DNA from: Phoronis australis | Lineage: Eukaryota > Animalia > Phoronida | Assembly: GCA_002633005.1 (NCBI GenBank) | Contig: NMRA01000254.1 | Location: 155,722 to 219,721 of the forward strand | Length of the DNA stretch: 64,000 bases | Direction of reading: 5' to 3' | Shown: positions 1,510-64,000 of the stretch, in pieces | Numbering within the stretch: position 1 is the stretch's first letter | How the letters are laid out: the number at the start of each line of letters is the position of its first letter | Program-made: the position numbers and the translations under genes | Notes under the pieces: model-generated | Database searches by the model: none | Told to the model about the DNA's origin: nothing | What the model saw: only the letters and a program-made list of their open reading frames with translations

Positions 1510-1729
1510 CTGTACAGTTTCTACCTAATGACTCGTCTTGCTCCTGACGACGTCTCAGTGCGATCTGTCTTGCCATTACAGATTGTCGAATTGCAATCAA
1601 AGTGCACTTTGGGCACTTGCAATCTTTGAAGGGACAGAACCTTTTGTGGCCCTTGAGCACCCGAATGTCGCCATGGTTACGACAGCGAGCACACTTAGGC
1701 ACTCTGGATTTCGGCTTGTTCAGATCCAT
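1510..1729 (-). CDS. Dmrt: Dmrt/doublesex-mab-3 family transcription factor, first coding exon (DM domain)
   Basis: [66 protein letters not shown] carries the complete DM zinc-module Cys/His pattern. Acceptor ttttcag lies 3 nt before the ATG (exon starts 1732). Donor G|gtatgg at 1510/1509 is phase 1. Downstream exons were not identified in the window. Confidence 0.95.
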
Positions 1730-3280
1730 TAGCTGAAAATGAAAGATGTTTTCACAATTAGGTCTATTGTGGCGATTAATAGATCTAGTTTCACAACCAC
1801 CTCTTACAAGGCCGAGGCGGATCCAGAGGATTCGGACACCCCCGGGTCTACTGATTTTCATTGCTGTGGTCGAGGAATATAAAGTGCCTCCCATGACCAT
1901 CCAAAGTATGCCAGACTCATCATTTTCTGGATAAGATCCTGCATTACTCGCTTTAACGCACATAGCAAGTGCTGATCTCGGGCGCATAACTGAGATGCAT
2001 TCCGTATCGAAACGCTGGGTTTTGTGTCCATTTTTTGCCGTCGGTAACGGCAACGGGTTTTAACATCTTTTCAGATTGATTTGTATTATTTACTGCCACG
2101 TATAGTGCATATATATCAATGGCGAGAAAATCTTTTTTTGATTTTTTGTTTGACTGAAGGAACAATTCAAGTTCACCAGTAACGCTTGTCCAATACTATG
2201 ACCAGTTATTGTAATCTCACACTAGGTGACGTGTTTTGAGTTTGGTTTAAAAACTGTCTCGAACTTCAATGATATGTAAACGTATTTGGGATTTCTGAGA
2301 CTGTGACAGCACACATAACTTTGAACTTGATAGTAGCGAAATCACGCTCGTCCAGAAAAGAAGGCACAGGAGTAATGGCTTCCATGTACATGCTTCGTCA
2401 TAACCAGTTTGCATGAACCAGCTAATATTAATGTATTCTCTTAAAAGTTATTCAACTATTTTTTACGTCAAAAACAACTCAATTTTGTACATTCGAATTT
2501 CAAATAAGAAGATCTTTTAGTAAGGAAATCAAACTTCCTCCACATGAAAACATTGATTCCTGCCAACCACACAGACCGGGAACAAAATACGTTCACAAAC
2601 ACCAATGCAGAATTTCTCCCTATTTGCTGAGTTGACTAAAAACGAATATTGAGTTCGACCCTTTACTCCAGAAAAATCACTCCCACAATATTCATTACCG
2701 TGATATTTCCGTTACCAACTCAACATCGAAACCATGGGCAACACAAGAAAACGCTTATTTAGAGTTTAGTGGAATAGGCCAACCCTAAACTTGCGAAGTT
2801 GAAAATGGCGCGTGTACGCATTGTCTGTGACTTGAATTGCCTGCTCATTTGGCGACAATTGAAGACCGGATGAGCGAGGTTAAGCATTTAACATTGGGAG
2901 CTGAACAGTGGCGAAACGTGCCATTTACCACGAATTACCACAGAAATGCACTTTTTATTTTTGAGTAGAACTGACGTCTTGAACTTACTAGCTTTGACCA
3001 GAATTGTAAAGCAGTAAATTCCGTTATGCTTTTGTGATTTTGTTATAATTTGCCGAATCCTAACAAAGGCTTCCAGTCAAAATTAACCGAAACCGAGGCG
3101 GCTATCTCTGCCACAGCTGCTTCGTTGTCAGTCGCCGTCAGAATCGACGCGGGTAGTGGGTAGTGCTGATAAAAACCGGATAATCTGCTGAGTGTACGTG
3201 AGAAAAAGAGGCGCAGTGATGAGGCACATTGGCGGAGTGACATCTTTAGAATAGGCATTTGGGAATAAGGAGAGCTGCCG

Positions 3281-18848: not shown

Positions 18849-19271
18849 CGGTGGCTTTGAAAGGACGGCACGGCAAGATTTTTTTCTCCGTTGTTAACTC
18901 TATCCGATAGACTTATTAACTCTATCGATAGACTTACTGTCTCTATCGATAGAGTTACTATATCTATCGATAGACTTATTAACTCTGTCGATACTACTAT
19001 CTCTATCGATAGACTTACTATCTATATCGATAGACTTATTAACTCTATCGATAGACTTACTATCTCTATCGATAGACTTATTAACTTTATCGATAGACTT
19101 ACTATCTCCATCGATAGACTTACTATCTCTATCGATAAAGTTAGTAAGTCTATCGATAGAGTTAGTAAGTCTATCGATAGAGATAGTAAGTCTATCGATA
19201 TAGTTAATAAGTCTATCGATAGAGTTAGCAACGGAGAAATATGGTTGCCGTGCCGTCCTTTCACAGCCAGG
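18849..19271. mobile_element. Fold-back MITE with TA flanks and an internal 21-bp TATCGATA minisatellite
   Basis: Left TA|CGGTGGCTTTGAAAGGACGGCACGGCAA...TTTCTCCGTTG is mirrored by CAACGGAGAAA...TTGCCGTGCCGTCCTTTCACAGCCAGG|TA. The interior has ~16 units of CTCTATCGATAGACTTA(C/T)TA that switch orientation near 19135. Confidence 0.85.
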
Positions 19272-20219: not shown

Positions 20220-21415
20220 AGGCGAAGGCAACCTTTTTATGTCACTTTTAGTAAAAATAAGGTTCGTTGATTATCCCAGACACATTTTTCACTTAATTAC
20301 AGCTTTTCGTAATTTGATTAATTTCTCGTCCTCTACTCCGGAAGTGACGTTTTGGGAGGCAAGAGTTTCGAGCCAATTTCTTTTCATTATAGTCTGATTG
20401 TGAGAGCTGTCGAGTCAGTCATTGTTCTACCTCGGTTGTGATAAGTTCGGTCGTCGTTTGCTTTTGTTTACAAGTTAGTCAACATGCCGCGCTGTTGTTG
20501 CGTGCCGGGATGTACTCATTATCGTCTCACACGCGCTTTGGGTACCTTGCGTCGCTTTCCGAAGGATGACACACTTCGCCGTACTTGGCTAGCTCGTTCA
20601 TGTGAAGAACGCAACGCTACCCGTACACGCAACGTACAAAGCAGAAGAGGGTTACCGAGTGTGTGGCAAGCATTTTCTGCCTTCAAATTATGACAGATAT
20701 GTACGCTGAATTCGTGAAGGTTCCTGCGAAACAACGCCTGAAGAAGGGTACCATACCGTCGCTGTTGATTCCCGGCAGTGCCCCGTCGCCAACCCCGAGA
20801 AGTGCGTTTTTGAAGCGAGAACCCTCGCGAGCTGTGGCCACTATGTACAGTGAGAGTAATGGGAGTGAATACAGGCCCAGTTCCACACCCAGTGAAGAGG
20901 ACAGTTCCTCATCCAATGAACAGATCGGTGAGCCTAAGTTTGATAAGTTTATTGTGGACTTGTATTGGATCTATTTGGAAGGTGCCAGGTGTGTGGAGAG
21001 GGAGTCACACGGCGGAATGTAAGCAGTTTGGGTGCTCAGATCACCCTCCAGTGGGAGTGTGTCGCGGGACACTCGGGCAAGTGGGACAGTTCTTCCTCTG
21101 TACGTGAGACGATAGTGAGTACACCCCAGTACGCAGCAACAGCGTGGCATGTTGACTGACTCGTAAGCAAAAGCAAACCACGACCGAACTTATCACAACC
21201 GAGGTAGAACAATGACTGACTCGTGAGCTCTCACAGTCAGACTATATGAAAAGAAATTAGCGCGAAATTCTTGCCTCCCAAAACGTCACTACCGGAGTAG
21301 ACGACGAATAATTAATTAAATTACGAAAAGCAGTAAGTAAGTGAAAAATATGTCTGGGATAATCAACGAACCTTATTTTTGTTAAAAATGACATGAAAAA
21401 AGGTTGCCTTCACCT
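20220..21415 (+). mobile_element. Kolobok-superfamily DNA transposon derivative with ~311-bp inverted arms
   Basis: TTAA flanks (20216-20219, 21416-21419) and AGG...CCT termini. Arms 20220-20530 and 21104-21415 are inverted copies. A THAP-transposase fragment lies inside. TTAA TSD, RR termini and a THAP domain are the established Kolobok signature. Confidence 0.85.
20484..21103 (+). pseudogene. Frameshifted, truncated THAP-domain transposase N-terminus
   Basis: Read across frames: MPRCCCVPGC...RFPKDDTLRRTW / YRVCGKHF / RLKKGTIPSL (THAP C2CH and AVPT-like box), then KFIVD / DLFGRCQVC...GAQITLQWECVAGHSGKWDSS (Cys/His module). At least 3 frameshifts and no DDE core. Confidence 0.85.
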
Positions 21416-24853: not shown

Positions 24854-27800
24854 AAAGACTTCGGTGAGACAGTGCGCTGTAGAAAGCTATTTAAAATGCT
24901 CAGTTTGCCACGGTGAATTATTTCAGTTTAAAACTTCAGAGCTATAAATTCTTCAAGGTTTAATCAGAAACCGAAATTACAATTCCACAAACTAACGTTC
25001 AAAAGTTTTACGGTTACTCTTATCTGCCTGCGCAAGTCTACGTGTCCCTATTATTGGCACAATAACTCTAGCGTACCCACAGAGGCACAACAGCATTATG
25101 ACTCCCCTGTTGACTGAACCCCTTCCCTCCCCCCGCCCACCAACAGTTTCGTGTTCCCCCTACTGAATATAGTGCTCATCATTACAAAGCTCACTCCTTT
25201 CTGATGTGACATCACCTCACCGTCACAATTGTCCATCATTGGTTTCCGTTGCGGTCTTTATAATCTTGCGTACTCAGATATTTGTCAGTCCCGATAATTT
25301 ACAACAAACACTGGGATAGACTAAGGTTCATCGGGTTAGAAAAAAAGACGACAGGAGAGCGAATTTCGGTAGAGTAATCTATGTGATTACAGGAAAACCG
25401 GTTCTCGAACGTATCAGTGTCGGGCTTAGAGAAAAAAACAACAGGATGTGATTAACTGAACAAAATGGAAAAGCTAATTCCGATGATGTATTAGGATTCC
25501 GACACCAACACGAATGTTTATTTTTGTCTGCAAGTTGATGATTTTTACCTCGACCAAAGCAAACTAATTACTACATTTGTTAGATATACTTTGACCGTCT
25601 TTCCTATGGGTTGGATTTTGACAAAAGATTTCATTGATTGTCTTTTAGTTTACCCCTTAAAAATAAAGACTGAGACTTTTCAATAGACTACAATTCTAGA
25701 ACTGTTAACTTTTCCACAGCAACCAAGACCGTCTTTTGTCTCTCCTGTAGGTGAAACTTCAACAAAAGTTCACCTGTTGTGCCAACACATTTCACAGAAT
25801 AGTTTTAAATTGTGTTAAAAACGAGACTTGTCTCGTTTAATTTCATTAGCACTGGAGAAGTCACCCATTAGCTTAGTTTGTGGCTGCCAAAGAACATTTT
25901 TGTTTAAGTAGGTTACACACCAGACTAATATAGCAGAAACAACTGTTGACTTTGGCTACTTACCGTTATGGAATTGGTCTCAAATTGTCCCTAGGTCAAA
26001 GGGGATATGATTTCAAGGCTTCGAAATAACTGACGGTTCATTATTGCACGAGACGAGGCTCTACATGTTGACTTGTCACGGCGTGTCATTTTATGCGTCT
26101 AGCACGGCGGGTCAATGAACTGTCAGTTTTTAGCAAGCCTTGAGTGAGTGAGTTACCAGTTGAGGGCGCTGTGAGGCGGGTTTAAATCAAAAGTTCGCTT
26201 CTTGGACGGAACTCGGGTTAAATGCTGCTTTAAATAAAAAAGTCGCCTGCAAATATTTGTCATAACCCTCGATGGTACTTCTGCAGGCTATTTGTCAACA
26301 GTTTACTTCTTGACTCTTCACATAATACATGTGCCTATAAACAATTTTTTCAATCTTGAATAACTCAATGTAGCCGTCAACCGTTGTGATGGCAAACAAA
26401 TCCGGTTCTGTTACAAGATTCACGACTGGAAAATAATTATGCAAGCTAGCCGAGATACCCCAGGTCGCCATTAGATATATAGCCCCGGTCCCCTACAATC
26501 TTCGAGTTATTCCTCTGTCGTCGCGAAAGAGGGGATCGCAACCCCGTTTTAAGTGATGTGCATGTTAACTCCAAAAACGAGATGCCGACAGCGTTTTTTG
26601 GCCGTGTTCATAGCCAGCGCCTCGCCCCAGGCCCCCTCTACATCCCCGTTTCCACAACTTCCGAGGACACTGGTGACTACTTGTGCGGGACCCTAAATTG
26701 TAGCCCACTTAACTTAATCTTGGACTGCATCCAAGATCAGTTTTTCGTGGTAGTCTGACTCACCTCGCCTTCCCCGTCGATGAAGGCACGGTGCTGACCA
26801 ACCATACAGTTCAATCACGGAGTTCAATGCACTGGGTGGATGTGTTATGATATTCATGTTACTGGTTAAACCTTGCTTATTAGCACCGTTAACCACTGGT
26901 CAGTTTTCTTCAGCGAGTGTGCGTGTTCCATTTCAAGCTATCACCTTACATCGCCAGTTATGGGTTCCCTGTTTACATTGGATTCGCCTCCTCGAGGGAC
27001 TGAGGCCAGTTCTCCGTCGCGTCCAGCCCAGCTCATTCACAATATGTTTATTTTATTATCGTACCGCACAACGTATTCTCTATTATATGTAGGCATAAGT
27101 GCTAAGCGATGAGTTTCAATAGCCATCGACTGTGTTATTGTTTACGCGTCCCTCCAATCCCATTACCCACTACCCCTATCGTAGAAGTGGACCGGACGTA
27201 GCTTACCTTTGACTGGATTTGAGGTGAATGTTTTTTAACCCTCAATAAGCCATTCAAATTTACACTTAAAGGTTTTGTTATCATGGACGATTGAAATTCA
27301 CGTACAGGGTAGTGGAAACCTCTGTCTTCAGACTGGGGTAAGTAAACATACTAGTGAGGTTTTGGTGTTGATCTTGTCTCGCTCAAATGAACCGTCACCT
27401 TGTCCTTGTATAATGGGTTACAACCCTGACAACTAATGACGCCACGAAAATGCTTGTAGTTATCAGCCGTTTCCCGTACATATTTGAGTCCTTGCCTGGT
27501 TTGAACAGCGAAGCTCTCAGTAGTGATATGACGTGTTATTATATTTCGACAACTCATTGGTCCTAATAACCCACGCTGGCTCGAATAACAGCGGATATGT
27601 AGGTATATAGACAGACAGCGTCCGTGATTCATACACTATGCTCCGCCGGCCTTAACCTAACCTCAGCGTAGGAGCCGGTTAGCGTTGGTAGACTTTTTAA
27701 CATTATTTGTCGACGCTTTCATCGAGCTGAAAAAGCGACGCGTGATTGTAAAGGACTATTGTGTGTTTGGGAATATTGTTGCTGATTTTATTCACTGGTA

Positions 27801-28087
27801 TGTCTAACATCCGTCGTTGACTAGCTCCTAATTGTGATGTTGTCCGAGATATAGCAGTCTGTAGATTTCACTTTGGATATTGTGACTGTAATTGTTACAT
27901 TCTTTGCCAGCAGTCACCACATTCTTTTCTAGGTAGAGTCGGGATGAGCGAGTAAACTCCGTAGAGTTCGCAATTGGATTACATCGCGAATCACCGCTTG
28001 TACCAGAGACATTGCCAGAGTCAACCCACTTGAGACGCACAGTCTCAGCGAGTACGTTTGACGGCTCGGCTATCGAATTCCTACAGA

Positions 28088-28832
28088 ATGGGGCGGATAG
28101 CCGTACTTTTATACTTAACCGTAGTTTATTTGACAATCCTTGTCCGTGGATTCTATTTACCCGGCACTGGTACATCCTATGCCAGGTATCCAGCATGGAA
28201 TGGGTGCAGAAACGCATCTATTTCGTTCGAATTCAGAGTGAAAGCGGACGATGGGGCCGAGCCTCAAGAAGACGGTCTCCTGTTGTACGTGGATGACGGA
28301 GGTTCATCCGGTCAGTATATGGCACTCACGCTGGAAGATGGATTGGTTACTCTTAAACTGAAACTGCGAGACCAACGCGAAGCAAATACGAGAATACAGG
28401 GTACAAACCCAAAGAACACGGGCGACTGGGTTCGCGTTCATGTGGAACGAAACCGTATGTTGTCTGTCCTAACCGTCGACGGTGAGCGATTGACTAACAT
28501 TACGTTTGCGTCCGATTTTGACTTCAGCAACTCCGGACCTGTTTACTTTGGGGGTATTCCCGAAGACTATCCCCTACTATCGCTATCTTACCCCAGCGTC
28601 TCCTACATCACGCACTTTAAGGGGGACATTCGCAACGTACTCTATGGGAACTGCACGTGCCTCCAAAGTCGCGTGCAAATGGTTGACAACGTCGGCGTTC
28701 CGGATGACTCCGTCGAGAGCTGTGACCGCTCCGACCCGTGCCAACAGCAAACAGGAGAGGGTTGCGTGTGTCTGACTCAAGACGACAAGTCGTCCAAATG
28801 CGAATGCTCCCAGGCGACCCGCTGCGATACCG
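28088..28832 (+). CDS. NRXN: Alpha-neurexin-like gene, coding exon 1: signal peptide, LNS1, EGF-like 1
   Basis: MGRIAVLLYLTVVYLTILVRG is a hydrophobic signal. SYARYPAWNGCRNASISFEFR, GLLLYVDDGG and VYFGGIP are neurexin LNS1 motifs. A Cys-rich tail follows. Donor G|gtaagt, phase 1. Confidence 0.88.
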
Positions 28833-46828: not shown

Positions 46829-47065
46829 AGGTCCACTATGCTTTGAATTTCGAGAACAGTATTCAGGATCACTATGAATCACAGAGACTCACGCTGTATA
46901 ATGAACATGGTCTGGATGCCGAGTGCCCACAGCCTGGACAACCTACACTTAGAAAGTCATTCCATGGCTTCACTCTGCCACTTGTTCCTCCCCTGGAGTA
47001 TGCCAGAATTGCGGGACCGAGTCAACGCAAGGAATGTCTGGGCGATTTGTCTCTTTGTCCATCAG
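46829..47065 (+). CDS. NRXN: Neurexin-like exon 2: N-terminal part of inserted LamG3/pentraxin-like domain 1
   Basis: Polypyrimidine tract with tgcag acceptor. Reads EVHYALNFE...ECLGDLSLCPSG, the same CLGxLxxCxxG motif as the later repeats. Donor G|gtaaaa. 237 nt, phase 1-1. Confidence 0.85.
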
Positions 47066-47735
47066 GTAAAATACCGTTATCAGAGAATGGATTCCATGTG
47101 CATGGTGACATATGCTGTGACAAAACTTGCTTGCCTGAAATTCTGTGACATTTTGTGACATTTTGAGAATTCGGTGACAAATTGTGACCCAAGTAATTAG
47201 TGTTAGTGTTTTGTTGTGTTTACCCTTATTTTGTGCTGCTTCAAGCGGTAGTTCCTTTTTCTCAAATTATAAAATTCTGGAATTCATCGTTATCACAAAC
47301 AAATATTGTGTCTCGCATATGTGGCAAAAGTAAAGTTGATGTGGCTTTTTCTTGCAAAAAGCACCAAAAACCTGTCCTTTGACTATTGAGGCTTCCCTGT
47401 GACAGAAAAAATTGAGGTAATGACACAAATTGGGACTTGCCATTTAACGTGAATCTTTTCCTTGTTTTATACAAAATGAAAGCATGCTCACCTCACCAAT
47501 GTTCCTCTTTTTTGTCTCATATTTCATTGGCTGCACCAAGTCAGCAAATTTTTTGAAAGAATAAATTGCCTCAGCAATAGTTTTTTATTTAAGTTTGATC
47601 AAAGTTCACAAATCTTGTTGCATAAATCGTAAAGAACAAGGTGAATTTACAGAAGATTCTTTTAAAAATTTTGTAACAAAACGGAATTCAGTCAATGATT
47701 GCATGAGATAGTCAGCTTAGGCAAAGGCAACTCAG

Positions 47736-47933
47736 AAGATGAATGAAAATTGTAAATAACTGAAAATCATAAGATAATTGACTGCTATATCTTGCTCTAA
47801 TACGTGAAATGTTGCTCTCAATGGATGTATGAGTTTAGACAAAGGCAACATACAAGATGAATGAAATTGTAAACAATTAAAAATCATTAGATAATCGACT
47901 GCTATATCCTGCTCAAAATGGTGAAATGTTGCT
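47736..47933. repeat. Intronic direct duplication (~80 bp, period ~118 bp)
   Basis: aagatgaatgaaa(a)ttgtaaa...gactgctatatc.tgctc...gtgaaatgttgct occurs twice. Confidence 0.75.
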
Positions 47934-48207
47934 GACTTGTGAAGCACGTGGAACTTTTCTGGCAACTGACGTAAGTTCCATCGGAAGTAAATCCTTGTGA
48001 TTGCTCCATCAAAAATGCCTGATGCCTCATTTCAATTGACTTTTAGTGAAATAAAACTTCCTGGTTAGGCCAAAAAGCACCAGAAAGCACCACTAGTACA
48101 AGGCATGTACTAACACTGAATAGACTATCGATTGTTTTGATATAAGCACAATTCTTCAATAAAGTCAGGTCTGTACAACCTGTTGAGTACCTTCTGTATT
48201 TCTTTAG

Positions 48208-48657
48208 GTTACACGTTTTCCATATGGTTAATGTTCCCGGAACCTGTATACGAAGAAGGTGTCTACATTTCCAATGGTGGCCACAGCCAATCCTCTCATG
48301 GCATTGCCGTCCTCTATGGCAAAGGCAAACTCACCATCGTGTTCCGCCTGAAGAACGGGCAAGTGTGGAGAACATCCTATGACAATCTGCTAGAGGGAAG
48401 TTGGTATCATATGGCGGCATCATGGCACCAAGACCGTGGGCTGTTCCTTTATATCAATGGCATACTGGAATCATCGTCCCCTCGGGCAGTGTATGAGGGG
48501 GCAGTGGTGGGTGCTGTCACAGACAATTACTTCACTATTGGCCGACCAAACGAGAACCGTGTTTCGAGCTCAGAGTTGGCAAAACTTGGAAAGATCACAG
48601 TTGATGAGTTCAACTTTTATGACAGTTTCAAGGATGCAGCTTTTATCCGAAATAATG
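48208..48657 (+). CDS. NRXN: Neurexin-like exon 3: rest of LamG3-like domain 1
   Basis: tttag acceptor. GYTFSIW...WYHMAASWH...LYING...FTIGR...VDEFNFY. Donor G|gtgagt. 450 nt, phase 1-1. Confidence 0.9.
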
Positions 48658-48882
48658 GTGAGTTCATCAGAGTGTTGTCATTTTCTGAATCAAATTACTG
48701 CACATAACATAAGGAGATTCATTTTTGAAGTTGCTTGCATAATTAGTAACCTTCTAACTAGAAAACCTTGTTTTGACTAGTCACACGCAAAGTCAAAAGT
48801 TTGTTTTAAGAAGTTTCAGTGCATTGCTTGTTTTGGAAAAACACGCATTTACAACATATGCAGTACTTAATTGTATTTTCAG

Positions 48883-49521
48883 GGCCTAACTACAAAATGA
48901 CCCTGTCAATGAACAGCTTGCAGGCAAGCCGTGTTCAATGGAGAAACAACGCTGCTGATGCCCGTGTGACAGGTACCGCGACGCTCGTCGATGGCAAAAT
49001 CAGTAAAGCCATGACTCTCAACAGCGCGTATGTCGTTCTCAACGATGGGGAGGGCTCCTGCCTCACAGACCTGGACAAGTGCTTCAATAAGGGACTCTAT
49101 ATATCATTCTGGATCTTTTTCAACCAACGTCTAGGGTCAGGAACGTACTACTTGTTAGACACATCGGGCAGCCGTGGTGTTTCGCTGTTCTACCAGAATG
49201 GTAGACTGCAAGCAAAGGCAAGAACGTCCAAGAAAATGTGGTCAGCTCAGTGGGCTGGTATAACACACAATACGTGGTATTTTGTCGAGCTATCCTGGGG
49301 TGGCAGCACACCGCTGCAGTTGTTCGTAAACAGGGCACTTGTTGCTTCGGCTACAGACTTTGTCGCTCTAAACACGGGTGGCTCCAATGTTGTGTTGAAT
49401 CACGTGATGTTGATTGGCCGTAAGGTTGATGGTGGTGCTACAGTTCCTGGCATTATTGATGAGGTGGAAATATGGTTCGCCAGCAGAGACGCGCTCTTGG
49501 AAGGGAACTTTATATTTAGAG
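48883..49521 (+). CDS. NRXN: Neurexin-like exon 4: LamG3-like domain 2
   Basis: ttttcag acceptor. CLTDLDKC, WYFVELSW, IGR, IDEVEIW. Donor G|gtttgt. 639 nt, phase 1-1. Confidence 0.9.
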
Positions 49522-49849
49522 GTTTGTTCGTGTTGCTTGTGAATCATTTTAAACGTTTACTGAACCCTGTTATGATTATTTCATCCGTCACTGATTTTGT
49601 CAGATGGTATTGCTCAATTACTACATTTTCACTGAAAGACAAAGGCGTAGTTCAGCTAAAAAACTTCCGCATAATGTCGCCCAAAGTCGTACCTGTGGTT
49701 TGGGTATGGTGATCTTTCTGTAAAGCTGCTGTTATAACTCGTCCAAAGTGTACTGATTTAGCAAACCTAATGAGATTTTTGCTCCAAATTTTGAAGGTAG
49801 AGGAGAGTCACAGGGTATCAACGCAATTATATCATGTTGTAGTCGAATT

Positions 49850-50117
49850 TAAAATCTGATGAGTAGAGGTTTCTTTTTTCACAACCAGTAATAATATATT
49901 TACACTTGAACAGTTCTGTCTCCTATCAACAGCCGTCTTATTGGACACTAGGTGGCGTGGTGATCAAGCTGTTCCAATTTCTGGACAACTTATACCCTAT
50001 TCCATCCCTGTTGATGACCCATCCATTTTTCTTGACTCAGATTGACTTTCTTATCAACTGAGGGTAAATATGTTCTTACTGGTTGTGAAAAAAGAAACTA
50101 CTACTCGTCAAATCTTA
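49850..50117. mobile_element. Intronic MITE-like inverted repeat (~60-bp arms)
   Basis: tgatgagtagaggtttcttttttcacaaccagtaataatatatttac is mirrored by gtaaatatgttcttactggttgtgaaaaaagaaactactactcgtca. Confidence 0.75.
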
Positions 50118-50657
50118 CGAAACTATTTAGTGATGTAAAAATCTGTTTGCAACGTGTGATGTCTTTCGAATGGGCGAAATGAGAATTTGGTCACATGCTA
50201 TTATGCCGAGACACTTTTGTGAAGACATTTTGAAAATTTAATATTAAGTGAGTAGACATAAAACCAACCAGCTGGTGGTATGCATTATGTGTTTGGTGCG
50301 CCTCCTGGTGTTTATTGTTGTATGTACGTTCTCTTGTACATGAGGTCTCGTAACTGAGTTAAGTACAGTGCAAGCCAAAAATATTCAGACTTGGACCCGT
50401 AGTTCCACGTCATGACAGATAGGCAGACGCCGAATTCATAGTCAGATTGTAGTCTTCCCTCGTGACCGAGAATGAAGAGGAATGAACAGGAAAGGTAGTA
50501 AGGCGGTTAAGCCAATTTGTAATTAGAATTTTGCTCCCCTTTTCGTTACAACCAGTCGGTTTTGCTGTTAAGAGAATTAGCCGTCATCACAAGAAATCGG
50601 TGTTTTGTCTGATTACTTTTGTCTTGTATGGTACATAAGAGTTCGCTTCATTTCCAG

Positions 50658-51314
50658 ATAAACCCAGGCTACACTACTGGAGCATGAATGCTGTGGAAGG
50701 AAATGTCAACCAGCGATCTTCTATGAGAATAAGCCAACACCGCAGCCCGCAACTTGTTAATGGGAAAATAAAAGGAGCGATTCAATACAACGGAGAAAAC
50801 CAATATGGTGTTATAAGAAGAATCGTGAAGAGATGTGATGGAAATCTGAACTATTGCACCCGAGGTCTGACCTTGTCGACATGGTTACGACCTGGCGACC
50901 TTTCCTCCAATGAACACTATATGTCCACGGGTCCCAACGGAATTGACCTCTCGTTGAACAACGGACGGCTCGTTGCAACTGCCCAAACATCAACTCGCGT
51001 CTGGACGGTATCCACCAATCAGTTTTCTCCAAGCAAATGGCAGTACATTGAAATATCCTGGCACCCAGAGTTTGGCCTGAAACTGTATAAAAATTTTAAG
51101 TTGATTGCCAAGTCATCGTCCTTCACTGCCCGTGACCCCGCAACGGTTGTCGACCCTCGTTCCAGCAAGATAGAATACTTGCTGGCCCGTGGTCGTAGTG
51201 GTAGGTCTCCCAGTGCACCACTCTCGAGGGCGTTTGCCAATATGACGATTGACGAACTCCAAGTGTGGCAGTCCGACCGAGAGAATCTGCTTGCTTTCAA
51301 CTTTGCACTAAGAG
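50658..51314 (+). CDS. NRXN: Neurexin-like exon 5: LamG3-like domain 3
   Basis: tttccag acceptor. CDGNLNYCTRGLT, WQYIEISWHP, IDELQVW. Donor G|gtaggt. 657 nt, phase 1-1. Confidence 0.9.
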
Positions 51315-51990
51315 GTAGGTGATCTTATGCTATTGTTTCGGTCTTTGAATTGGTGTGAGCACTCAGTTGTTTTATTTTGATGAATTCATTGTCTGATTCA
51401 TTAATATTTTGTGGTTGTTTAGTAATCCATGGTATATTTACACTAACTTCTGACTTATTCACATTGGCATGATGTTTCACACGAACATTTCTACAGCTAT
51501 ATCTGACTCATTTGTTACATGTTCTGGTAAATAGACACATAGATTTTTATATATGTTTACACCTTTCCAGTTTTTTAAAAATTATAATAGCTATAAATTA
51601 AATATAATGGGGTTAATACATGAATTTAACTAAGTTGATTGTTGTTGATTAGTTGTGCGGAGGGCAACACCAAATTTCTGACTCAAGTCTTGAGTCACTT
51701 TTCATGACTCAGACCCTAGGCTCAATAAGTTGACTTATTACATCATGTTATTTATACATTTAGCATGGCCTCAACCAGTCATCAAACTGCCAGTTCTTTC
51801 AGAGGCACCAGATCCAGATCACTGGTCATTTGAGTAATACTTCATGGCGGTCTAAGTCAAAAGTCAGTCTTTTGAAGGAAAGGGAGTTCATAGCCACTTT
51901 AGCATCGTAACACAGTGTTTTTTTTTCTGTTTGCATTATTTATTTTGTCGAGAATGCCTCCGTCACAGAAGAGTTTATGTGTACTTGTAG

Positions 51991-52653
51991 GCAAGCCCAC
52001 TAATTATGAACTGGATATGGACCTCATCTCCCGCCAGCTTGGATATAACCCGAGATTGTACCATCCGCAGCTGGATATTGAGTTGTTTAATTCCCCGTCG
52101 CTCGTGGCAGATGGCAAGATCAACAGTGCTCTCCGTCTCGGTGGGAGACAGTACGCAGATCTAGGCACGCAGGCAGACAAGTGTCTCGGAAATATCGGAC
52201 ACTGCAAGCATGGATACACTTTAGTCACGTGGTTGAAATTTGAAGATTTGGAGGAGAATTCGTACGTATTGTCTTCTGGCAACCGTGGCGTGACGCTGTA
52301 TTACAGCAATGGAAAACTAAGAGCTGTTTTCAAGCACCACAGTGATAACCAGCAGTGGTCGCTGAGTGCTGACAATATCGAAACGGGGAAATGGTATCTC
52401 GTAGATCTCTCTTGGCACCCTGTTCGCGGAGCTGCCATGTTCATCAATGATAAACTTGTATCAGAGAGTACCGTTGGAGTGAATGCTGCGGCCTCCTCCA
52501 CCTCCGTCACTCCTCATTTCTATCTTGGTCGTGCAAACTCGGGCGATGCTCTTGGCGGCGTGCGAACCAGGGGAGCTGAGGCTGTTCTGGACGAGATGGA
52601 AATCTGGTATGGCGACCGTTACTACCTGGTGGCTCATGACTATCTACAGAGAG
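51991..52653 (+). CDS. NRXN: Neurexin-like exon 6: LamG3-like domain 4
   Basis: ttgtag acceptor. CLGNIGHCKHGYT, WYLVDLSWHP, FYLGR, LDEMEIW. Donor G|gtaagg. 663 nt, phase 1-1. Confidence 0.9.
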
Positions 52654-52810
52654 GTAAGGCTCTGAGATGGTGTCTCACTGTTTGCACTAAAATCTCACCA
52701 AATTTGGACAAATGATTTACGATGATTTGTGGTTCCTAAGGGTGTCTTACTTAATATGAGATTTTTTCGATTTCAATTGTAGCCATTATGATTTTCCATT
52801 TTTGTTTTAG

Positions 52811-54046
52811 GCATCATTCCGGTGGAGACGATATCGTTTGAAAAACAAGATGGCAACACAATACTACATCCTCGACTAGATGTACAAACAGTCAACGGGG
52901 CTACACTGTCCAAGGGGAAAGTGGGGAAAGCAATCATGCTCAATGGAAATCGACAGTACGTTGACTTGGGTGACCACTCGGACAAGTGCTATGACAATCT
53001 CGATCTGTGTCCATTTGGACTAACAGTCAGCATGATGGTGAATCCTGATTCGCTTGAAGCTGGGCAAACATTTCTGAGCGGGGATGCTGTTAATGTATTC
53101 TACCGTAATGGACGGACGTATGCAGAGTTCAGCACGAAAGACAAGCGTTGGACGGTGAGTACGACTTCTGTACGTCCAGGACAGTGGAATGAGATTGATC
53201 TCTCGTGGCATCCAGAGAAGGGGCTGGTTATGTATGTGGACGGACAGAGAACGCTAGAGGACACGCAACCGGAAACTGTCTCTGGCAGGTCAACCATCAA
53301 CTACAACATGTTTATCGGCCGGGACAGTCGAGGCAGTCGCCTGTCGTATCCTCGAGCGAAAATAGATGAAGTCCAATTCTGGGGTGCCACACGGGAAGTG
53401 CTCCAAGCCCATGGCTACAAGCATGGGGCTGATGTGTACAAGGAAGAAATGAACTTGGACAAGATAGAGAACAATAAGGTGGAAAATACCAAGAGACAGG
53501 TGACTGTTTTTGGGAATCCCCAGGTTGTGTCAGGGGTCATAGGTCAGGCGGTGCTCTTGAATGGCAGGAACCAGTATTTGGACTTGGGATCAAATATCAC
53601 GTGCTTGGAAGGGAACATGGAAGGCTGTCTAGAGGGGTACACACTTCGCATGAGGGTGAATCCGCAGACCCTAGAGAGTAATACATACCTTGTGTCAAGT
53701 CAACCGCTGGATGTCTACTACAAGAACTCTAAATTGTACGCTGTGTTCCGAACAGCAGACAAGGTGTGGATAACATCTACAGATAAGCTGGAAAGCGACG
53801 AATGGAATTTACTGGACATCACGTGGGATAACGAGAATGGTGTTCGTATCTTCAAGGATAGCAAGGAGGTGGGAGAACAGATGTTTCCGGAGCGTAATGA
53901 CGAAGGCGTGGACGTGAAACGGCACTTCTACATTGGGCGGTCCAACACAGATACATTGAATGAAAAGTACTTGGATGCAAAATTGGACGATGTCCAAATA
54001 TGGAATGCCAAAAGGGATATCCTTGTCAGCCAAGGTCTTTTCACTG
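52811..54046 (+). CDS. NRXN: Neurexin-like exon 7: LamG3-like domains 5 and 6
   Basis: ttttag acceptor. Two repeats: CYDNLDLCPFGLT...IDEVQFW and CLEGNMEGCLEGYT...LDDVQIW. Donor G|gtacgt. 1236 nt, phase 1-1. Confidence 0.9.
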
Positions 54047-54644: not shown

Positions 54645-54662
54645 ATGGAAAGACAGTCGACG
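54645..54662 (+). CDS. NRXN: Neurexin-like candidate 18-nt microexon (DGKTVD)
   Basis: ccccgtttcccattttag|ATGGAAAGACAGTCGACG|gtatgt. Frame-preserving, phase 1-1, no stop. Confidence 0.55.
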
Positions 54663-55971: not shown

Positions 55972-56023
55972 AGCCCAACTTCACTTGGATTTATCCACCT
56001 GATTCCAGAAAAGGTTTTGTTAG
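55972..56023 (+). CDS. NRXN: Neurexin-like exon: start of LNS2
   Basis: ttacag acceptor. EPNFTWIYPPDSRKGFVR. Donor AG|gtaagc. Its phase 1-to-2 change is needed to join the next exon in frame. Confidence 0.8.
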
Positions 56024-56751
56024 GTAAGCACTACTACTAATGGCAACCCGGGCCCGTGACCACTAAAACTGTACGTGAGACTCGATTTGAAAATGAAGCT
56101 GAATCGTGTGTGTTGCTTCGGGGTCCGTAAACTGTATTCAGTAGACTCATGAACTTAACGAAAATGCAGTCATACAAACCATTGAGAGGTGTCATTTATT
56201 ACAACTGGAGCACGTGATCATACTTACCTAGCATTTCTCATGAACGCCTTAGGTCTATGGATCGCAGCCCTGAGTCAGTCTCCATTGGAGAGATTTATGT
56301 TAGCGCGGCCTCTCTCGGGATCCTCAACAATTTGGAAGATCGACCATTTCTTACTGATGAACGAATTTGCAGTACCGTAATTTAGTTGAAAATGCCATTT
56401 TTTATACATTGAAAAATTCACAGTTATTTTTCAAACTTTATTTCCTTGCTACTTGGTAGAATGCAATAATGACTCCTTTTTCAAAAAAAAAATGAGTTGT
56501 TACAAACTGCAGCTTAGTACTTGTTAGGCATAGTGCTGGGTACAAACAAACCCAAAGGAATGAGTAAATTTATATGACTCTGCATAAATTGTGGTATTTT
56601 GCATTTTGCCAGTCTGTACCTGTCAAAATAATGATTGATCGATCTTAAAGGAACCATCAGTTTCCAGTTGTTTTTGTTCTGTGTTTAAATTACTTCTCAT
56701 CACTTCGCTCCTCCAATTTATTTCATCATGTGGCATTATCTCCATTTTCAG

Positions 56752-56893
56752 GTTCGACTTCACCGAATTGCCTGATAAATATACAGGTCGAAATACCAGG
56801 GAAGAGATGCATGTCACGTTCAAGTCAAATTATCGCGATGGTCTAATATGGTTGAATGGAGATGAAAACCAGAAAGCCTTTTTAACTCTCAAA
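56752..56893 (+). CDS. NRXN: Neurexin-like exon: LNS2
   Basis: ttttcag acceptor. FDF...EEMHVTFKSNYRDGLIWLNG...LTLK. Donor gtaaga. Confidence 0.88.
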
Positions 56894-57793
56894 GTAAGAT
56901 GTTTTTACTGAAGGGGATTATAAGATCTGACCATAGATGGCAGCAGTAGCAGCCTAATTCTGATTGGTTACACTTGATTTTCTCACTCGTCATACTTCGG
57001 TTTAGCAAAGTCCTGGCTAATAAGACATCTGATTGGTTTATGAGCTGAAACTTGTCGAGAGAGAAAATCAAATGCAGCTGTTGTATACTGTTGTCTGATA
57101 CAAACAACTTGTCTTGTCTAATACAAGTTTCAAATTGGGAATTTTTATCAGACAGCACGTTATTTGCTTCCAGAGAGTGTCCACAGGGTCACCCTAGCTT
57201 CGTGCTTTATTAAAAAATTATTTAAGATAGTTTCAGTGTTTCTTTGGGCTTAGTTGAAGGTGTGTTGCCTTTCCCCTGTGAACAGTTCACCTAAACATAA
57301 TTCTCTCAGTAAGAATGTTCAAATGTCTTAGTGACCTGAGAAAAATTGATATGAATGTCAACGCTCTTATTTTAACTTAATTTCGTTGTCAATGTAAGTA
57401 TTGTTAGTCTGTTACTTGCCAATCATTAACAATATCACAAGATTTATTATTATCTCAAGCATGTAATTCTGCCCCTAACAGAAGCAAATTAGACTGTGTA
57501 AAGTTCCTTGATGTGACCAACAGGTGGCATGTAAGAAACCTATATAACTTATTGCAGTTTTTTAAAAAAATGAGTTGCCAAATTTCATTGAAATTTCTGT
57601 GGCCTTGTTACCATTACAGAAAAAAATTGATGAAAAAATAAAGCTAAATCGTTTGAAAATCAACTGAGCAAATGTTTGCTTTACAATTTGGCTGATTTCC
57701 AACAAGGATATTTTTTTCTATTTTTTAGAAGTTGTTAACTGTATTATGTCGCCCGGTAGATATATAATGACTTGTTTGTCTCCATATTTTCAG

Positions 57794-57925
57794 GATGGTA
57801 ATCTGGTACTGGTATTTGATTATGGTAACAATGTGAACGACACCATTGTATTACGACCAACAGATGGCAGCAGGTTCAGCGACAACAGAGTTCACAACGT
57901 GGTCATCACCCGAAATGGACAGAAT
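57794..57925 (+). CDS. NRXN: Neurexin-like exon: LNS2
   Basis: ttttcag acceptor. DGNLVLVFDYG...RFSDNRVHNVVITRNGQN (compare NRXN1 KFNDNAWHDVKVTRNLRQ, recalled from memory). Donor gtatga. Confidence 0.88.
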
Positions 57926-58584
57926 GTATGATGATTTTTTCTTGTCAAATGACTCCAACATTCACACAGTCCAAAAAAACATAAATTTGTGTTCGACATT
58001 GAAATGATAGGTCAAATTGTCTCTCAAGTTTCTTTGTTTCTTTTGGTAAAAATGTGATAGATTGGAAAGTTTCACTACTTCTAGAAAACCAGTGCTGTAT
58101 CCTTATTCACCTATAGAGGGAGTGGTTGTTTGTTTGCATGATAAGCAATACCAGGCAAGGTCGTAAGTGGACTTGGCAAGCTACAAAAACACTGCCTTTG
58201 ACAACTACGTAACTATGATTGTAGGTGTTTGACTAGGCTGTTCACAGCTAACTGCCCTCAAGAGGGAGAACTGTGGTTTTGTCATCAAATTTTTGAAATA
58301 AAACAAATATATAATGGTGAATCCATAATAGTATGCACACAGTGTTTTCCTGAGGTTGTTGTTAGCCAATCATCAGGCAAACTGACCCCGAATCCTTGTC
58401 ATAATGGCTGAACTCAAAACAGAATTCATAACGTAGTTGTCGCTCGCAATGGTGGAGAATAAGAGGGAATTAGTGGAATGCGAACATTAAGTTTGGCTTT
58501 TACTTTCCTATACTTGTGAACATTTCCAGCAATTTGCATCATTTGTTACAATGAGATGGTTATGAAACTGAATTAAATTTCCAG

Positions 58585-58743
58585 GTTGACATCAATGTGG
58601 ATGAGAAATATCGCACCTCAGGTAGGACTCGCCGCCCGTACAGGTTTAACAACCCATCCTTTGCGTACATAGGTGGCACCACTGATACGGAAAAGTTTAC
58701 AAACAAGTTGGTCAGGGACAACTTTCTTGGTACACTAACAAAT
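58585..58743 (+). CDS. NRXN: Neurexin-like exon: end of LNS2
   Basis: tttccag acceptor. VDINVDE...AYIGG...DNFLGTLTN. Donor gtaagt. Confidence 0.88.
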
Positions 58744-59020: not shown

Positions 59021-59846
59021 TTCAAGATAATTGGCGATGTGTCGACCTTTGACCTCATGAAGTACGTCCACCAGTATCCTATCCCGGATGATCTAGCGGT
59101 GAAGGAGAAAATCATCTTCATTCCAGAGCTGCGTGGAAAGCTCAAATCCATATCGTCACCGGTGACGTTCAAGACACCAGAGGCACACTTGAGAGTGCCT
59201 GGGTGGGACCCCACACAGCCTGACAGTAATCTCTCCATTGCCTTTACCACTGTTGAACCCAACGGTCTGCTTTTGTACCAACCTGGGGCTTTGGGTACCA
59301 ATGATTACCTAGCTCTGGAACTGTATGATGGAAAACTTCACGCGGTGGTCGCGATGGATGGAACAGTGATGCGGGAAGAAGTATCAGAGAAACGCGTTGA
59401 TGATGGCCGCCCTCATGACACCATCGTTGAACAAGATGGAAATGCACTGAGGGTATCCCTCGATCCTCGCGGTGCAGCTGTTCTCAGGAGTGGAATTACA
59501 CGGAGAGCCGTAGGTAACGTTGCTCGACTCTACCTGGGTAATGTCGATAACCTCAATTTGGGCTCCAGCATTTATTTGGGCGGATATCCTGGGGAACTGC
59601 CTTGGCATATATGGTCCAGAAATGGATTTGTTGGTTGTATTGAGCGCCTGGACAAGGATGGCGATCCTGTCGATTTGGAGGGACCATTCAGACAACAGAA
59701 TCCAAGAAATGCAGAACTTCGCTGTCTGGACATGCCTGATAGGTGTCGCTCTCGACCGTGTATCCGTGGTGTCTGCGAAGAGTTCTGGCTTAAGTTCATG
59801 TGTGACTGCTCTTCTACTGACTACACAGATCAACGCTGCAACAGAT
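59021..59846 (+). CDS. NRXN: Neurexin-like exon: LNS3 and EGF2
   Basis: ttttgcag acceptor. PVTFKTPEA, TVEPNGLLLY, DYLALELYDGKL, GFVGCI, then EGF CRSRPCIRGVCEEFWLKFMCDCSSTDYTDQRC. Donor T|gtaagt. Confidence 0.93.
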
Positions 59847-60825: not shown

Positions 60826-61043
60826 TGGCCCCTGTTGGTAATTTTGATGGCAAGGAGTATAACCACATCAAGAAGGACAATATTGTGCTTGCTCATGTGA
60901 ATGACATATCCATGCGGTTTAAAACTAAGCAAAGTCGTGGAACACTGCTGTCGACGACCACGCCGTATGGCGATCTCTACTATAGAATAGATGTAGAGGA
61001 CGGAAGAGCAAAAATCACCACGAATCTCGGTGGAGAAACTAAG
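60826..61043 (+). CDS. NRXN: Neurexin-like exon: LNS4 part 1
   Basis: ttacag acceptor. FDGKEY...NDISMRFKT...GRAKITTNLG. Donor gtatgt. Confidence 0.9.
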
Positions 61044-61277
61044 GTATGTATTTCTGTGATATGCTGTTGGAAGTCCCCTTATCTTTAAAGGTACTTCCCA
61101 TATCTTGTTCTTAACTGAGTTTAAAATAGAATCCTGGGCACGAGTGAAGCTGACACTGTGTTACTGCTTAAAAATGTATTTGCATGCTCCTAACTATAGC
61201 AGGAACTAAATGACAGTGCTATTTGAACTTCATATACTCTAAATAAAATGCAGTATTATTCCCCAACACCACGTCAT

Positions 61278-61451
61278 GATACTTACTGGACACAATTGAG
61301 TGATTTACAGCGGATCATTTTCGACACAAAACTCGTTCTCAAAATCACTTGGCAATTTTCAATCTACTTCATATTAACATGGTCACTATAGGTTTCTAAC
61401 TAATTTGACCTAGCAATCATAGAGATAAGGAATTAGCGCTCAAGTTCCACT
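61278..61451. mobile_element. Dispersed repeat with a Kolobok-like end, copy 2
   Basis: Similar to 42050-42237. A possible left end TTAA|AGGTACTT lies at ~61085. Confidence 0.6.
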
Positions 61452-61843
61452 TTAAGGCGAGGTTCCACTAATTGTCGTTTCGTATGCTGAGTCACGTCTC
61501 GAGCAATAATGAGCTCTCAGTTCTTATCAAGCCTAGAAGCCACTTTTTATCTGCATGAGGGACAATTTGACACCAGTTTTATAACAACGCGTTGTTTACA
61601 CAATGGAAGTTTATAGCTCCTTAACATTTCCACTTCTACCATTTTTTTTTCAAACGTGGCGAACTGTCCGTTCTGTTAAAACCCAAGAATCACTTTGAAG
61701 TTATCCAAGGAACAATTTTAGACCAATTTCATAAATAATTTCAATTTGTAAGTGATCAAAATCATAAATTATTTTTAATTTTTTTGGTGGGAAGCGAGTT
61801 AGCTGCCATTGACCAATCTTATTACTGCTTTATGATTTTGCAG

Positions 61844-61952
61844 ACATTGTACGCGGGACGCAATATTAATGACAACAATTGGCACACGCTGAAGGTCAGG
61901 CGAAGGGCAAATAACTTGGAATTATGGGTAGACGATGAAAGCAGCATTAGCA
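61844..61952 (+). CDS. NRXN: Neurexin-like exon: LNS4 part 2 (not in the ORF track)
   Basis: ttttgcag acceptor. TLYAGRNINDNNWHTLKVRRRANNLELWVDD (compare NRXN1 [22 protein letters not shown], recalled from memory). Donor A|gtaagt. Confidence 0.92.
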
Positions 61953-62237: not shown

Positions 62238-62993
62238 CCATTCTTGCTGGTAAGGATTACAAGATGACGATGAAAGATATATACATTGGTGCCCTCATGC
62301 CACCCAGAAGTCAAACTGCGTCAAATATATTCCTGGGTCACGTAAAGAACGTCATCATTGATGGTGTAAAGTATTTCGACGTCGTCGGTGGCTGGCCCAA
62401 CATTCCTGGCACCAACATCACTGGTAAACCGCCGAGTCGTCGTGAAACACCGCAGCCATTGAATCCCAGTACGTTCAAAACACCAGAGGCCCATGTGACC
62501 CTGACCCAGCTGACTCGGGGAACTCGGTTGGCTCTCATGTTCAAAACCAAAGAACCGAACGGCCTGATCATGTACAACGGTCCAGCTCGTGGCTATGATG
62601 ATTTCCTTGCTCTGGAATTGCGGAACGGCAACCTGGTCTATACGTTCAACACAGGCGGAAAAATTTCCATGATTGTTGCACGTACGCGGGCGCCACTTAA
62701 TGACGACCAGTGGCATTATGTTGAGATCACGCAGCCAAATGAGTTAAAGACAGTGATGGTGGTGGATGACGCCGTGCAAGAGATTAGGAACTCTGCGTCT
62801 GACCCAGATTTCAATTTTGGCGGGAAACTCTACCTTGGTGGAATGCCCGAGGACATGTACGATGAACTGCCAAGCATTCTGGACTCACGTACGGGCTTTA
62901 AGGGTTGTTTGGCATCACTGGATCTGGATGGCCGCGTGCCCAACCTGTTCACTGACACGTTGACTAGACACCCGAAAGTGGCTGAGGGATGTG
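62238..62993 (+). CDS. NRXN: Neurexin-like exon: end of LNS4 and LNS5
   Basis: ttacag acceptor. FKTKEPNGLIMYN, DFLALELRNG, PLNDDQWHYV, LYLGG, GFKGCLASLDLDGR, EGC. Donor G|gtaagt. Confidence 0.93.
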
Positions 62994-63837: not shown

Positions 63838-63942
63838 GTAACTTCTGCGATGAGGACACCTGCCTTAACGGTGGTCGTTGTCTGCCGAATGACAAGTGTG
63901 ACTGTTCACTTACCTCCTACACTGGAGAGTTCTGCAGTCAGC
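63838..63942 (+). CDS. NRXN: Neurexin-like exon: EGF3 (gene continues beyond the window)
   Basis: ttttgcag acceptor. GNFCDEDTCLNGGRCLPNDKCDCSLTSYTGEFCSQ. Donor C|gtatgt. Confidence 0.9.
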
Positions 63943-64000
63943 GTATGTTTGACCCGTAACGGCTATTAGTTGCTATAAATTGCATCTTGGCGATTTCAAC

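Follow-up and report, generated by a model that had tools for sequence, protein, structure and literature searches.

Alpha-neurexins (neurexin-1-alpha, PDB 3QCW; PMC12665717, PMC3084293) consist of three LNS-EGF-LNS units, with a short optional linker between EGF1 and LNS2 and a short PDZ-binding tail. In vertebrates splice site 1 (SS1), with its 19-residue insert, sits at the EGF1/LNS2 junction, and the synaptic cleft measures about 200 Å (PMC3084293). According to the text of the study that describes it (bioRxiv 10.1101/131789), PHRED-1 is a lophotrochozoan neurexin offshoot that is defined by LamG, EGF, TM and WD40 domains, shows muscle expression and is needed for planarian muscle fibre patterning. 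The same text reports homologs in Lottia, Octopus and Capitella and ordinary neural neurexins that coexist with PHRED-1 in planarians. The planarian neurexins separate from PHRED-1 run from LNS1 to LNS2 without an insert.

The window analysed here, a stretch of 64,000 nt from Phoronis australis, carries a gene that encodes signal-LNS1-EGF1-(LamG3)x6-LNS2-LNS3-EGF2-LNS4-LNS5-EGF3 in a single reading frame. We read it, with a probability of about 0.68, as a spliced, neurexin-derived PHRED-1 ortholog, a putative muscle adhesion receptor with a ConA-fold arm and with WD40 inside the cell. The features are as follows:

27229..27337, plus strand: 5' UTR exon (start approximate), spliced to 27933; RNA loose ends
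27933..28832, plus strand: first coding exon with ATG at 28088, signal peptide, LNS1 and atypical EGF1, phase-1 donor; Pfam Laminin_G_2, E 2.6e-16
46829..47065, plus strand: cassette exon A, front half of LamG3 repeat 1; reads from 28832, profile match
48208..48657, plus strand: cassette exon B, back half of repeat 1; PF13385, E 3.6e-11
48883..49521, plus strand: cassette exon C, repeat 2; PF13385, E 1.4e-9, joint to 50658
50658..51314, plus strand: cassette exon D, repeat 3; PF13385, E 1.3e-6
51991..52653, plus strand: cassette exon E, repeat 4; PF13385, E 2.9e-10, joint to 52811, structure model
52811..54046, plus strand: cassette exon F, repeats 5 and 6; PF13385 in two stretches, E 2.7e-25, joint to 55972, two-domain model
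55972..58743, plus strand: LNS2 exons (55972-56023, 56752-56893, 57794-57925, 58585-58743); RNA joints, ORF, profile
59021..59846, plus strand: end of LNS2, LNS3 and EGF2; best PDB stretch neurexin-1-alpha 421-656
60826..61952, plus strand: LNS4 exons (60826-61043, 61844-61952); RNA joints, profile
62238..62993, plus strand: end of LNS4 and LNS5; best PDB stretch neurexin-1-alpha 770-1013
63838..63946, plus strand: EGF3 exon; RNA joint 62993>63838

The cassette consists of six symmetric phase-1 exons with AG/GT ends and lengths divisible by 3. Their sum of 3882 nt, or 1294 aa without a stop, agrees with the preliminary description. Joined to 28088-28832 they yield 1542 aa, and with the downstream exons up to 63946 the product reaches 2376 aa, both stop-free. 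The expected splicing of the cassette to the neurexin exons is borne out by RNA. All 21 reads that leave the EGF1 exon at 28832 enter the cassette; specifically, the first 30 nt from 46829 appear as loose ends behind 28832 in 6, 9 and 6 reads of three RNA runs, with an agreement of 1.0. Joints 49521>50658, 52653>52811 and 54046>55972 are present in three read sets and in the contig set, the last one with 9, 10 and 2 reads and one contig. A micro-exon that had been placed at 54645 finds no support, as RNA joins 54046 directly to 55972. Joints 47065>48208, 48657>48883 and 51314>51991 are absent among the joints listed; the exons flanking them are covered on the same strand and at like depth. The cassette looks constitutive, being included in every junction read seen. 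What had been called exon 1 does encode the signal peptide, LNS1 and EGF1, but a 5' UTR exon ending at 27337 lies before it: loose ends before 27932, X1 (109 nt) and X2 (6 reads), match 27307-27337. The RNA runs (tissue not given) show that the gene is expressed, and 17 of the 21 coding differences listed for the cassette are synonymous.

The LNS and EGF domains follow the alpha-neurexin order in register. LNS1-EGF1, LNS2-5 and EGF2-3 are present in the window gene, and LNS6 in its relatives. Neurexin ancestry, proposed earlier, is supported domain by domain: every LNS exon tested has its best PDB match in neurexin-1-alpha, in register and well above laminin and agrin. The first coding exon, with a hydrophobic N-terminus, matches neurexin-1-alpha 3-217 and reaches 117-147 bits with family members, compared with 41 bits for bovine neurexin-1-alpha. 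The bovine protein gives 82 bits for the LNS3-EGF2 exon (38-110 bits against family members) and 115 bits for the LNS5 exon (57-126 bits); scoring alike against both, these domains alone do not place the gene. In an Octopus relative, the region that follows the cassette can be aligned as a single stretch with neurexin-1-alpha 229-1241. The insertion point is the EGF1/LNS2 junction, and the SS1 hinge was thus correctly named as the site (PMC3084293). Where alpha-neurexin has its short optional linker, the window gene has a folded and apparently constitutive insert. An acidic residue is found in 7 of 7 last LNS domains but in only 1 of 8 LNS2 domains at the position compared here, which we take to be the neurexin calcium position; relative to alpha-neurexin, LNS2 has mostly lost it.

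PF13385 (Laminin_G_3) scores above the Pfam cut-off in five of the six cassette exons, in two stretches in the last one; exon A alone (78 aa) has no Pfam match. The exons flanking the cassette match Laminin_G_2. Pfam, reading frame and exact repeat count all agree on six LamG3 domains inserted between LNS1-EGF1 and LNS2, and the repeat profile detected no further LamG3 repeat in the 18-kb intron before the cassette or in the rest of the window. The model of repeat 4 (pLDDT 95.9) is a ConA-like sandwich, and the two-domain model of exon F has a pTM of 0.79. Foldseek matches of the repeat model are generic (TM 0.5-0.66), and the nearest solved folds include the carbohydrate-binding AbnA domain 4 and a trans-sialidase lectin domain. 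The only Cys pair of each repeat is C-x6/7-C, and repeat 1 has one further Cys. An ESM Atlas search with repeat 4 led to generic Laminin_G_3 clusters, which we regard as a lead only.

The term 'pentraxin-like', given to the repeats earlier, is right as to a distant likeness, since the jelly-roll sandwich is common to both and sequence likeness is weak (PTX3, E 0.006). It does not extend to family membership: no cassette exon matches PF00354 at E 0.1, and there is no Cys at what we take to be the pentraxin signature position. The same LamG3 module is found in adhesion-GPCR-like, VWD, astacin and SRCR proteins, and in the first two of these it has the C-x6-C-x-x-G motif class of the cassette. 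The N-terminal domain of ADGRD1/GPR133 presumably resembles the Laminin_G_3/ConA-like cassette domain. What sets the cassette's PF13385 modules apart from those elsewhere is their arrangement, a tandem of six within a neurexin scaffold. Because all cassette exons are phase-1 symmetric and unrelated proteins contain the same module, the proposed origin by exon shuffling holds up. Bacterial LamG3 clusters were also matched; a bacterial origin of the module by horizontal transfer is unsupported, its closer relatives being animal modules.

The preliminary description had presented the gene as an alpha-neurexin peculiar to its lineage, and neither part of this is supported. Family members make up 19 of the 22 protein search matches and come from 16 mollusc genera and Owenia; judging by these proteins, the six-domain block is not unique to this genome but common to molluscs and the annelid Owenia. 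Six repeats are present in 18 of the 19. A membrane segment and a WD40 domain of ~390 aa, instead of a short PDZ tail, end 17 of them, which is the PHRED-1 layout; of the other two, one model stops right after LNS6 and one has the membrane segment only. The Octopus sinensis protein supplies the tail missing from the O. bimaculoides model. Window residues 1-1540 are collinear with full-length relatives at 31-36% identity. Repeats cluster largely by position in a tree (8 label changes; minimum 6, shuffled mean 56), with repeats 2-6 in one clade and repeat 1 apart, and the gene tree of the family tracks mollusc classes. Macrostomum has a three-repeat version, and extra LNS domains occur in the oyster and Owenia relatives. 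The profile search of all 64,000 nt found no match to the relatives' tails, and LNS6, membrane segment and tail of the window gene would fall beyond the window, past the EGF3 exon. A tail fragment searched against the ESM Atlas gave generic WD40 clusters, under 0.9 and a lead only.

With PHRED-1 the window gene shares the signal peptide, the LamG/EGF ectodomain and the lophotrochozoan range. Collinearity, position-specific repeat clades and the gene tree make it an ortholog of the lophotrochozoan LamG-EGF-TM-WD40 proteins. In the available text, planarian PHRED-1 (Schmidtea mediterranea, dd_Smed_v6_4789) has a WD40-like region at 2085-2469, and the relatives of the window gene carry the same end of TM and WD40. 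The planarian protein (2506-2536 aa) differs in its run of six EGF domains and in lacking LNS1-EGF1. It has one cassette-like N-terminal stretch at most: in the first ~400 aa, cassette motifs are visible by eye in the unannotated residues ~28-225. In contrast, the window gene and its mollusc and annelid relatives retain the complete neurexin order and add six repeats to it (3300-4100 aa). Since the block is shared with relatives mostly ending in WD40, the gene is therefore likely to encode a PHRED-1-family muscle surface protein and not an elongated synaptic neurexin. Membership in the family is highly probable, and we infer it from the relatives' tails because the window ends before the tail of the gene itself. 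The PHRED-1 family is already known; the literature text, figures of the PHRED-1 paper aside, yielded no description of the six-domain cassette.

It is likely that alpha-neurexin duplicated before the mollusc/annelid split. Into one duplicate, at the flexible junction of EGF1 and LNS2, a mobile phase-1 LamG3 module would have been inserted and then amplified in tandem, as the repeat clades suggest, and the same duplicate would have exchanged its short tail for WD40. The predicted product is a single-pass muscle-cell receptor in which EGF3 would be followed, as in the relatives, by LNS6, a membrane segment, a Gly-rich linker and the intracellular WD40 scaffold. A jelly-roll domain is ~4 nm long, and on this basis the cassette may form a semi-rigid arm of perhaps 20-25 nm, by which LNS1-EGF1 would project into the matrix; the cassette may itself bind glycans. 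Membrane-proximal LNS6 likely keeps the calcium-dependent ligand site of neurexin, which LNS2 appears to have lost. Through WD40 the contact would be linked to the cytoskeleton, and in this way the protein would control how wide and how far apart the fibres are, like planarian PHRED-1. All told, the gene most probably encodes an adhesion receptor of muscle, equipped with an arm that is either a long spacer or lectin-like; its muscle role is extrapolated from one distant species, the planarian. A bolder and rather speculative version, unlikely as a whole, would see in PHRED-1 a complete copy of alpha-neurexin that was adapted to serve spiralian muscle as a molecular ruler and multivalent lectin. 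Its unrecognised ConA-fold arm at the SS1 hinge would be tuned in length from lineage to lineage (molluscs, Owenia and this animal have six domains, Macrostomum three and the planarian one; oysters and Owenia have additional LNS domains) and would set fibre-matrix spacing. This animal, outside the mollusc clade, may then add a further phylum to the family's range or have retained the neurexin tail that preceded WD40.

Other readings account for parts of these data. That the cassette is an artefact, either a LamG3-repeat gene of its own nested in an intron of the neurexin gene or an optional block that is rarely spliced in, would suit the length of the preceding intron, the skip from 28832 to 55972, which would keep the frame, and several public models that are split in or near the cassette. 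This is already largely refuted and very improbable in view of the reads at both cassette ends; moreover, 0 of 75 database entries with LNS1 and a later LNS lack the cassette, though these entries were collected by their likeness to cassette-bearing proteins and represent isoforms of few genes. The product could also be a synaptic alpha-neurexin, or a cassette-bearing intermediate with a short PDZ-type tail, at unusually wide neuronal or neuromuscular contacts. The in-register PDB matches, the equal closeness of LNS5 to bovine neurexin and family, the tail beyond the window and the name neurexin on some public models are all compatible with it. We consider it improbable, given the WD40 domain in 17 of the 19 long cassette-bearing relatives and the planarian neural neurexins distinct, in the PHRED-1 text, from PHRED-1; a cleft of ~200 Å (PMC3084293) is also short for twelve jelly-roll domains unless they are laid flat.

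The gene may instead be a PHRED-1 ortholog that outside flatworms acts mainly in epithelium, glia or neurons, or one whose cassette, instead of acting as a spacer, does most of the ligand binding as a multivalent lectin that recognises glycans of the matrix or of microbes. Repeat identities have been kept since the mollusc/annelid split, more than a spacer needs, and both the carbohydrate-binding neighbours in fold space and the occurrence of the module in adhesion-GPCR-like, VWD, astacin and SRCR proteins agree with this. Against it, no sugar site was identified in the cassette repeats, the invariant Gly, Trp and two Cys are those the fold would predict, and the repeats fall to three in Macrostomum and apparently, as far as the planarian source goes, to one in the muscle-expressed protein. 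On balance this alternative is unlikely.

With the window gene read as a PHRED-1 ortholog, several mollusc models labelled 'neurexin' are to be treated with caution as PHRED-1-type paralogs, and ligand and structure studies in Platynereis, Biomphalaria or oysters have a defined target in the cassette. The SS1 hinge can accommodate 1300 folded residues. PHRED-1, known from one planarian study, gains a clear origin as a full alpha-neurexin with two acquisitions. The ancestral PHRED-1 ectodomain likely had a conserved six-domain arm, and the planarian protein is largely without it.

The cassette between LNS1-EGF1 and LNS2 consists, as the preliminary description had it, of six exons (46829..54046), together 3882 nt in open frame; every one has AG/GT ends and is of phase 1-1. 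Spliced behind the exon that ends at 28832, they translate into 1542 stop-free aa; adding the downstream exons up to 63946 extends the reading frame to 2376 aa. Laminin_G_3 exceeds the Pfam cut-off in five of the six exons, with two matches in the last; the first (78 aa) encodes half a repeat, and the flanking exons are Laminin_G_2. A repeat profile gives exactly six matches within the window and none further. Each repeat has a W-x6-W strand and a cysteine pair, C-x6-C except for C-x7-C in repeat 6.

RNA evidence comes from three raw-read runs with the same species label, 18–19% of each being read, and one contig set. Reads over the gene lie on a single strand, consistent with a plus-strand transcript, and place the 3' end of the 5' UTR exon at 27337. 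The proposed splicing of the cassette to the neurexin exons is seen at both ends: the reads whose loose ends extend past 28832, 21 in total (6, 9 and 6 per run), all carry the 46829 start with agreement 1.0, and 54046>55972 is present in 9, 10 and 2 reads plus a contig. The inner joints 49521>50658 (9, 11, 10 reads) and 52653>52811 (6, 13, 2 reads) are likewise found in three runs and a contig. Seven downstream joints are also among the joints listed, and the remaining three cassette joints are absent among the rows listed. Skipping of the cassette from 28832 was not seen among the 21 reads, a small sample with tissue not given, and the micro-exon suggested at 54645 is unused in the reads seen. 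RNA depth is alike across cassette and LNS exons. Cassette exons account for 21 of the 40 listed sequence differences, 17 of the 21 being synonymous.

Other features of the window
1493-2059, minus strand: DM DNA-binding domain exon, Dmrt family (PF00751, E 3.1e-21)
18895-19227: tandem array of a 21-bp unit in 16 copies, with several frames open
20445-21189: short ORF, Cys-rich at its start, present as two inverted copies

The Dmrt-family exon and the neurexin-like gene stand head to head, ~25 kb apart. The 7-residue repeat of the array looks like noise rather than a gene. The inverted copies, whose Cys-rich start we take to resemble a THAP domain, are likely a DNA transposon remnant.

Relatives were reached from the last cassette exon through a Sinanodonta protein (signal-LNS1-EGF-repeats), which matched 22 long proteins: three are laminins and 19 belong to the family, the latter coming from Owenia, an annelid, and from 16 genera of molluscs (bivalves, gastropods and Octopus). 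Domain mapping places LNS1 at the start in 16 of the 19, six cassette repeats in 18 (four in one Owenia form) and a C-terminal WD40 domain in 17; LNS2-LNS6 with two EGFs are present in most, as are a hydrophobic segment and a Gly-rich linker. Mean identity of the WD40 tails is 71% among 13, and the tails are much better conserved (54–99%) than the ectodomain. After LNS6 comes a membrane segment rich in small residues, then conserved W-A residues and a very Gly-rich linker to WD40. Among 91 database entries of at least 1000 aa, 75 combine LNS1 with further LNS domains downstream; a cassette-free form was found in none of the 75, and 73 have six repeats. These entries are isoforms of few genes and were collected by their similarity to proteins that carry the cassette. 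The form in Macrostomum is divergent and has three repeats. Seven LNS domains follow the cassette in oysters and nine in Owenia, versus five, pointing to further internal duplications. One Babylonia isoform has five repeats and a Patella model begins inside repeat 1; splicing may vary repeat number in some species. Two family loci occur in Nucella, and two partial models (each 1101 aa) lie on one contig in Sinanodonta. RefSeq entries are mostly named 'uncharacterized', some GenBank models 'neurexin'.

A literature search for neurexins combined with WD40 led to planarian PHRED-1, a protein that seven papers name. According to the sections consulted of its preprint (bioRxiv 10.1101/131789), it has 2536 aa with six LamG, nine EGF, a TM and three WD40 domains. 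It is located on the muscle surface, and its knockdown leads to thicker, disordered fibres. Homologs are confined to lophotrochozoans (Lottia, Octopus, Capitella, Schistosoma), with follistatin blocks added in some parasites. The running text consulted makes no reference to a cassette of ConA/LamG3 type ('concanavalin', 0 matches); drawings of the homolog domains are given in its Figure 3A and its Supplemental Figure 2A. A planarian listing, consulted in part, gives PHRED-1 as a muscle gene (PMC6453901, supplementary file 6). Its unannotated residues ~28-225 show cassette motifs by eye, and unlike the window gene it is without LNS1-EGF1. The neural neurexin dd_11832 (1528 aa) in the same source is separate and insert-free, so an ordinary neurexin paralog coexists with PHRED-1 in planarian.

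In a quick-search repeat tree (104 rows, long branches flagged) the window repeats group with the same position in relatives, with 8 label changes against a shuffled mean of 56. SH-aLRT of the position clades is 98 for G1, 95 for G2 (9/10), 89 for G3, 67 for G4 and 96 for G6; G5 contains two Macrostomum rows. Repeats 2-6 form one set (SH-aLRT 97) and repeat 1 is placed with modules of other proteins; a second tree is similar. The LamG3 module also occurs alongside GAIN/7TM, VWD, astacin, SRCR, MAM and kringle domains and is therefore mobile. With its Cys pair it forms arrays in proteins of the adhesion-GPCR-like, VWD/F5-8, astacin, SRCR, MAM and kringle types and makes up an uncatalogued mobile domain subfamily of invertebrates. 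We infer shuffling, then tandem duplication before the mollusc/annelid split, with which the symmetric phase-1 exons agree. In a tree built on the N-terminal 1560 aa, the branching agrees with the mollusc classes; the window gene falls outside these and is closest to Owenia, at 36%.

Among solved structures, the exons for LNS1-EGF1, LNS3-EGF2 and LNS5 match neurexin-1-alpha best, at corresponding positions, and from the cassette end on an Octopus relative aligns in a single stretch to neurexin residues 229-1241. D/E occupies the acidic calcium-ligand position in 7/7 last LNS domains of relatives versus 1/8 LNS2. SS1 is a mobile insert of 19 residues between EGF1 and LNS2 (PMC3084293, in part), so the cassette does sit at the splice-site-1 hinge, where it had been placed. 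The LNS3 exon scores 82 bits against bovine neurexin and 38-110 against the family, the LNS5 exon 115 and 57-126, about equal in both cases; a clear preference for the family is limited to the LNS1-EGF1 exon (117-147 bits, against 41 for neurexin). The similar LNS3 and LNS5 scores count against simple placement of the window gene. Alpha-neurexins are defined by six LNS, three EGF and a short PDZ tail (PMC11294457 and PMC12665717, both in part), and most relatives end in WD40; a true synaptic neurexin, or a pre-WD40 intermediate, is an improbable reading.

The predicted model of repeat 4 is a ConA-like sandwich (pLDDT 95.9, pTM 0.92), and Foldseek finds generic lectin-fold domains (TM 0.5-0.66; NTNH, arabinanase AbnA domain 4, trans-sialidase). 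In the profile search, a domain of a bacterial S-layer protein ranks first among solved relatives (E 4.6e-10), and likeness to the pentraxin PTX3 is weak (E 0.006). Repeats 5-6 modelled jointly (pTM 0.79) suggest a set orientation between them. A role in another tissue, or a lectin-first role of the cassette, is unlikely. With the joints recurring across runs, an artefact is hardly conceivable.

Our preferred reading, at a probability of roughly 70%, is a single-pass adhesion receptor of muscle, its splicing, domain order and conservation being observed and its tail, tissue, ligand and geometry inferred. Close to the membrane, LNS6 is likely to engage a calcium-dependent ligand; the six-domain arm would carry LNS1-EGF1 out into the matrix, possibly binding glycans, and the WD40 domain would bring in partners from the cytoskeleton. 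What may be new is the ectodomain block, for which we found no description in the text of the open-access literature searched; the family itself, that of PHRED-1, is known, and the window gene is likely a member of this little-studied family. The cassette architecture is genuine and of ancient origin rather than a peculiarity of one genome.
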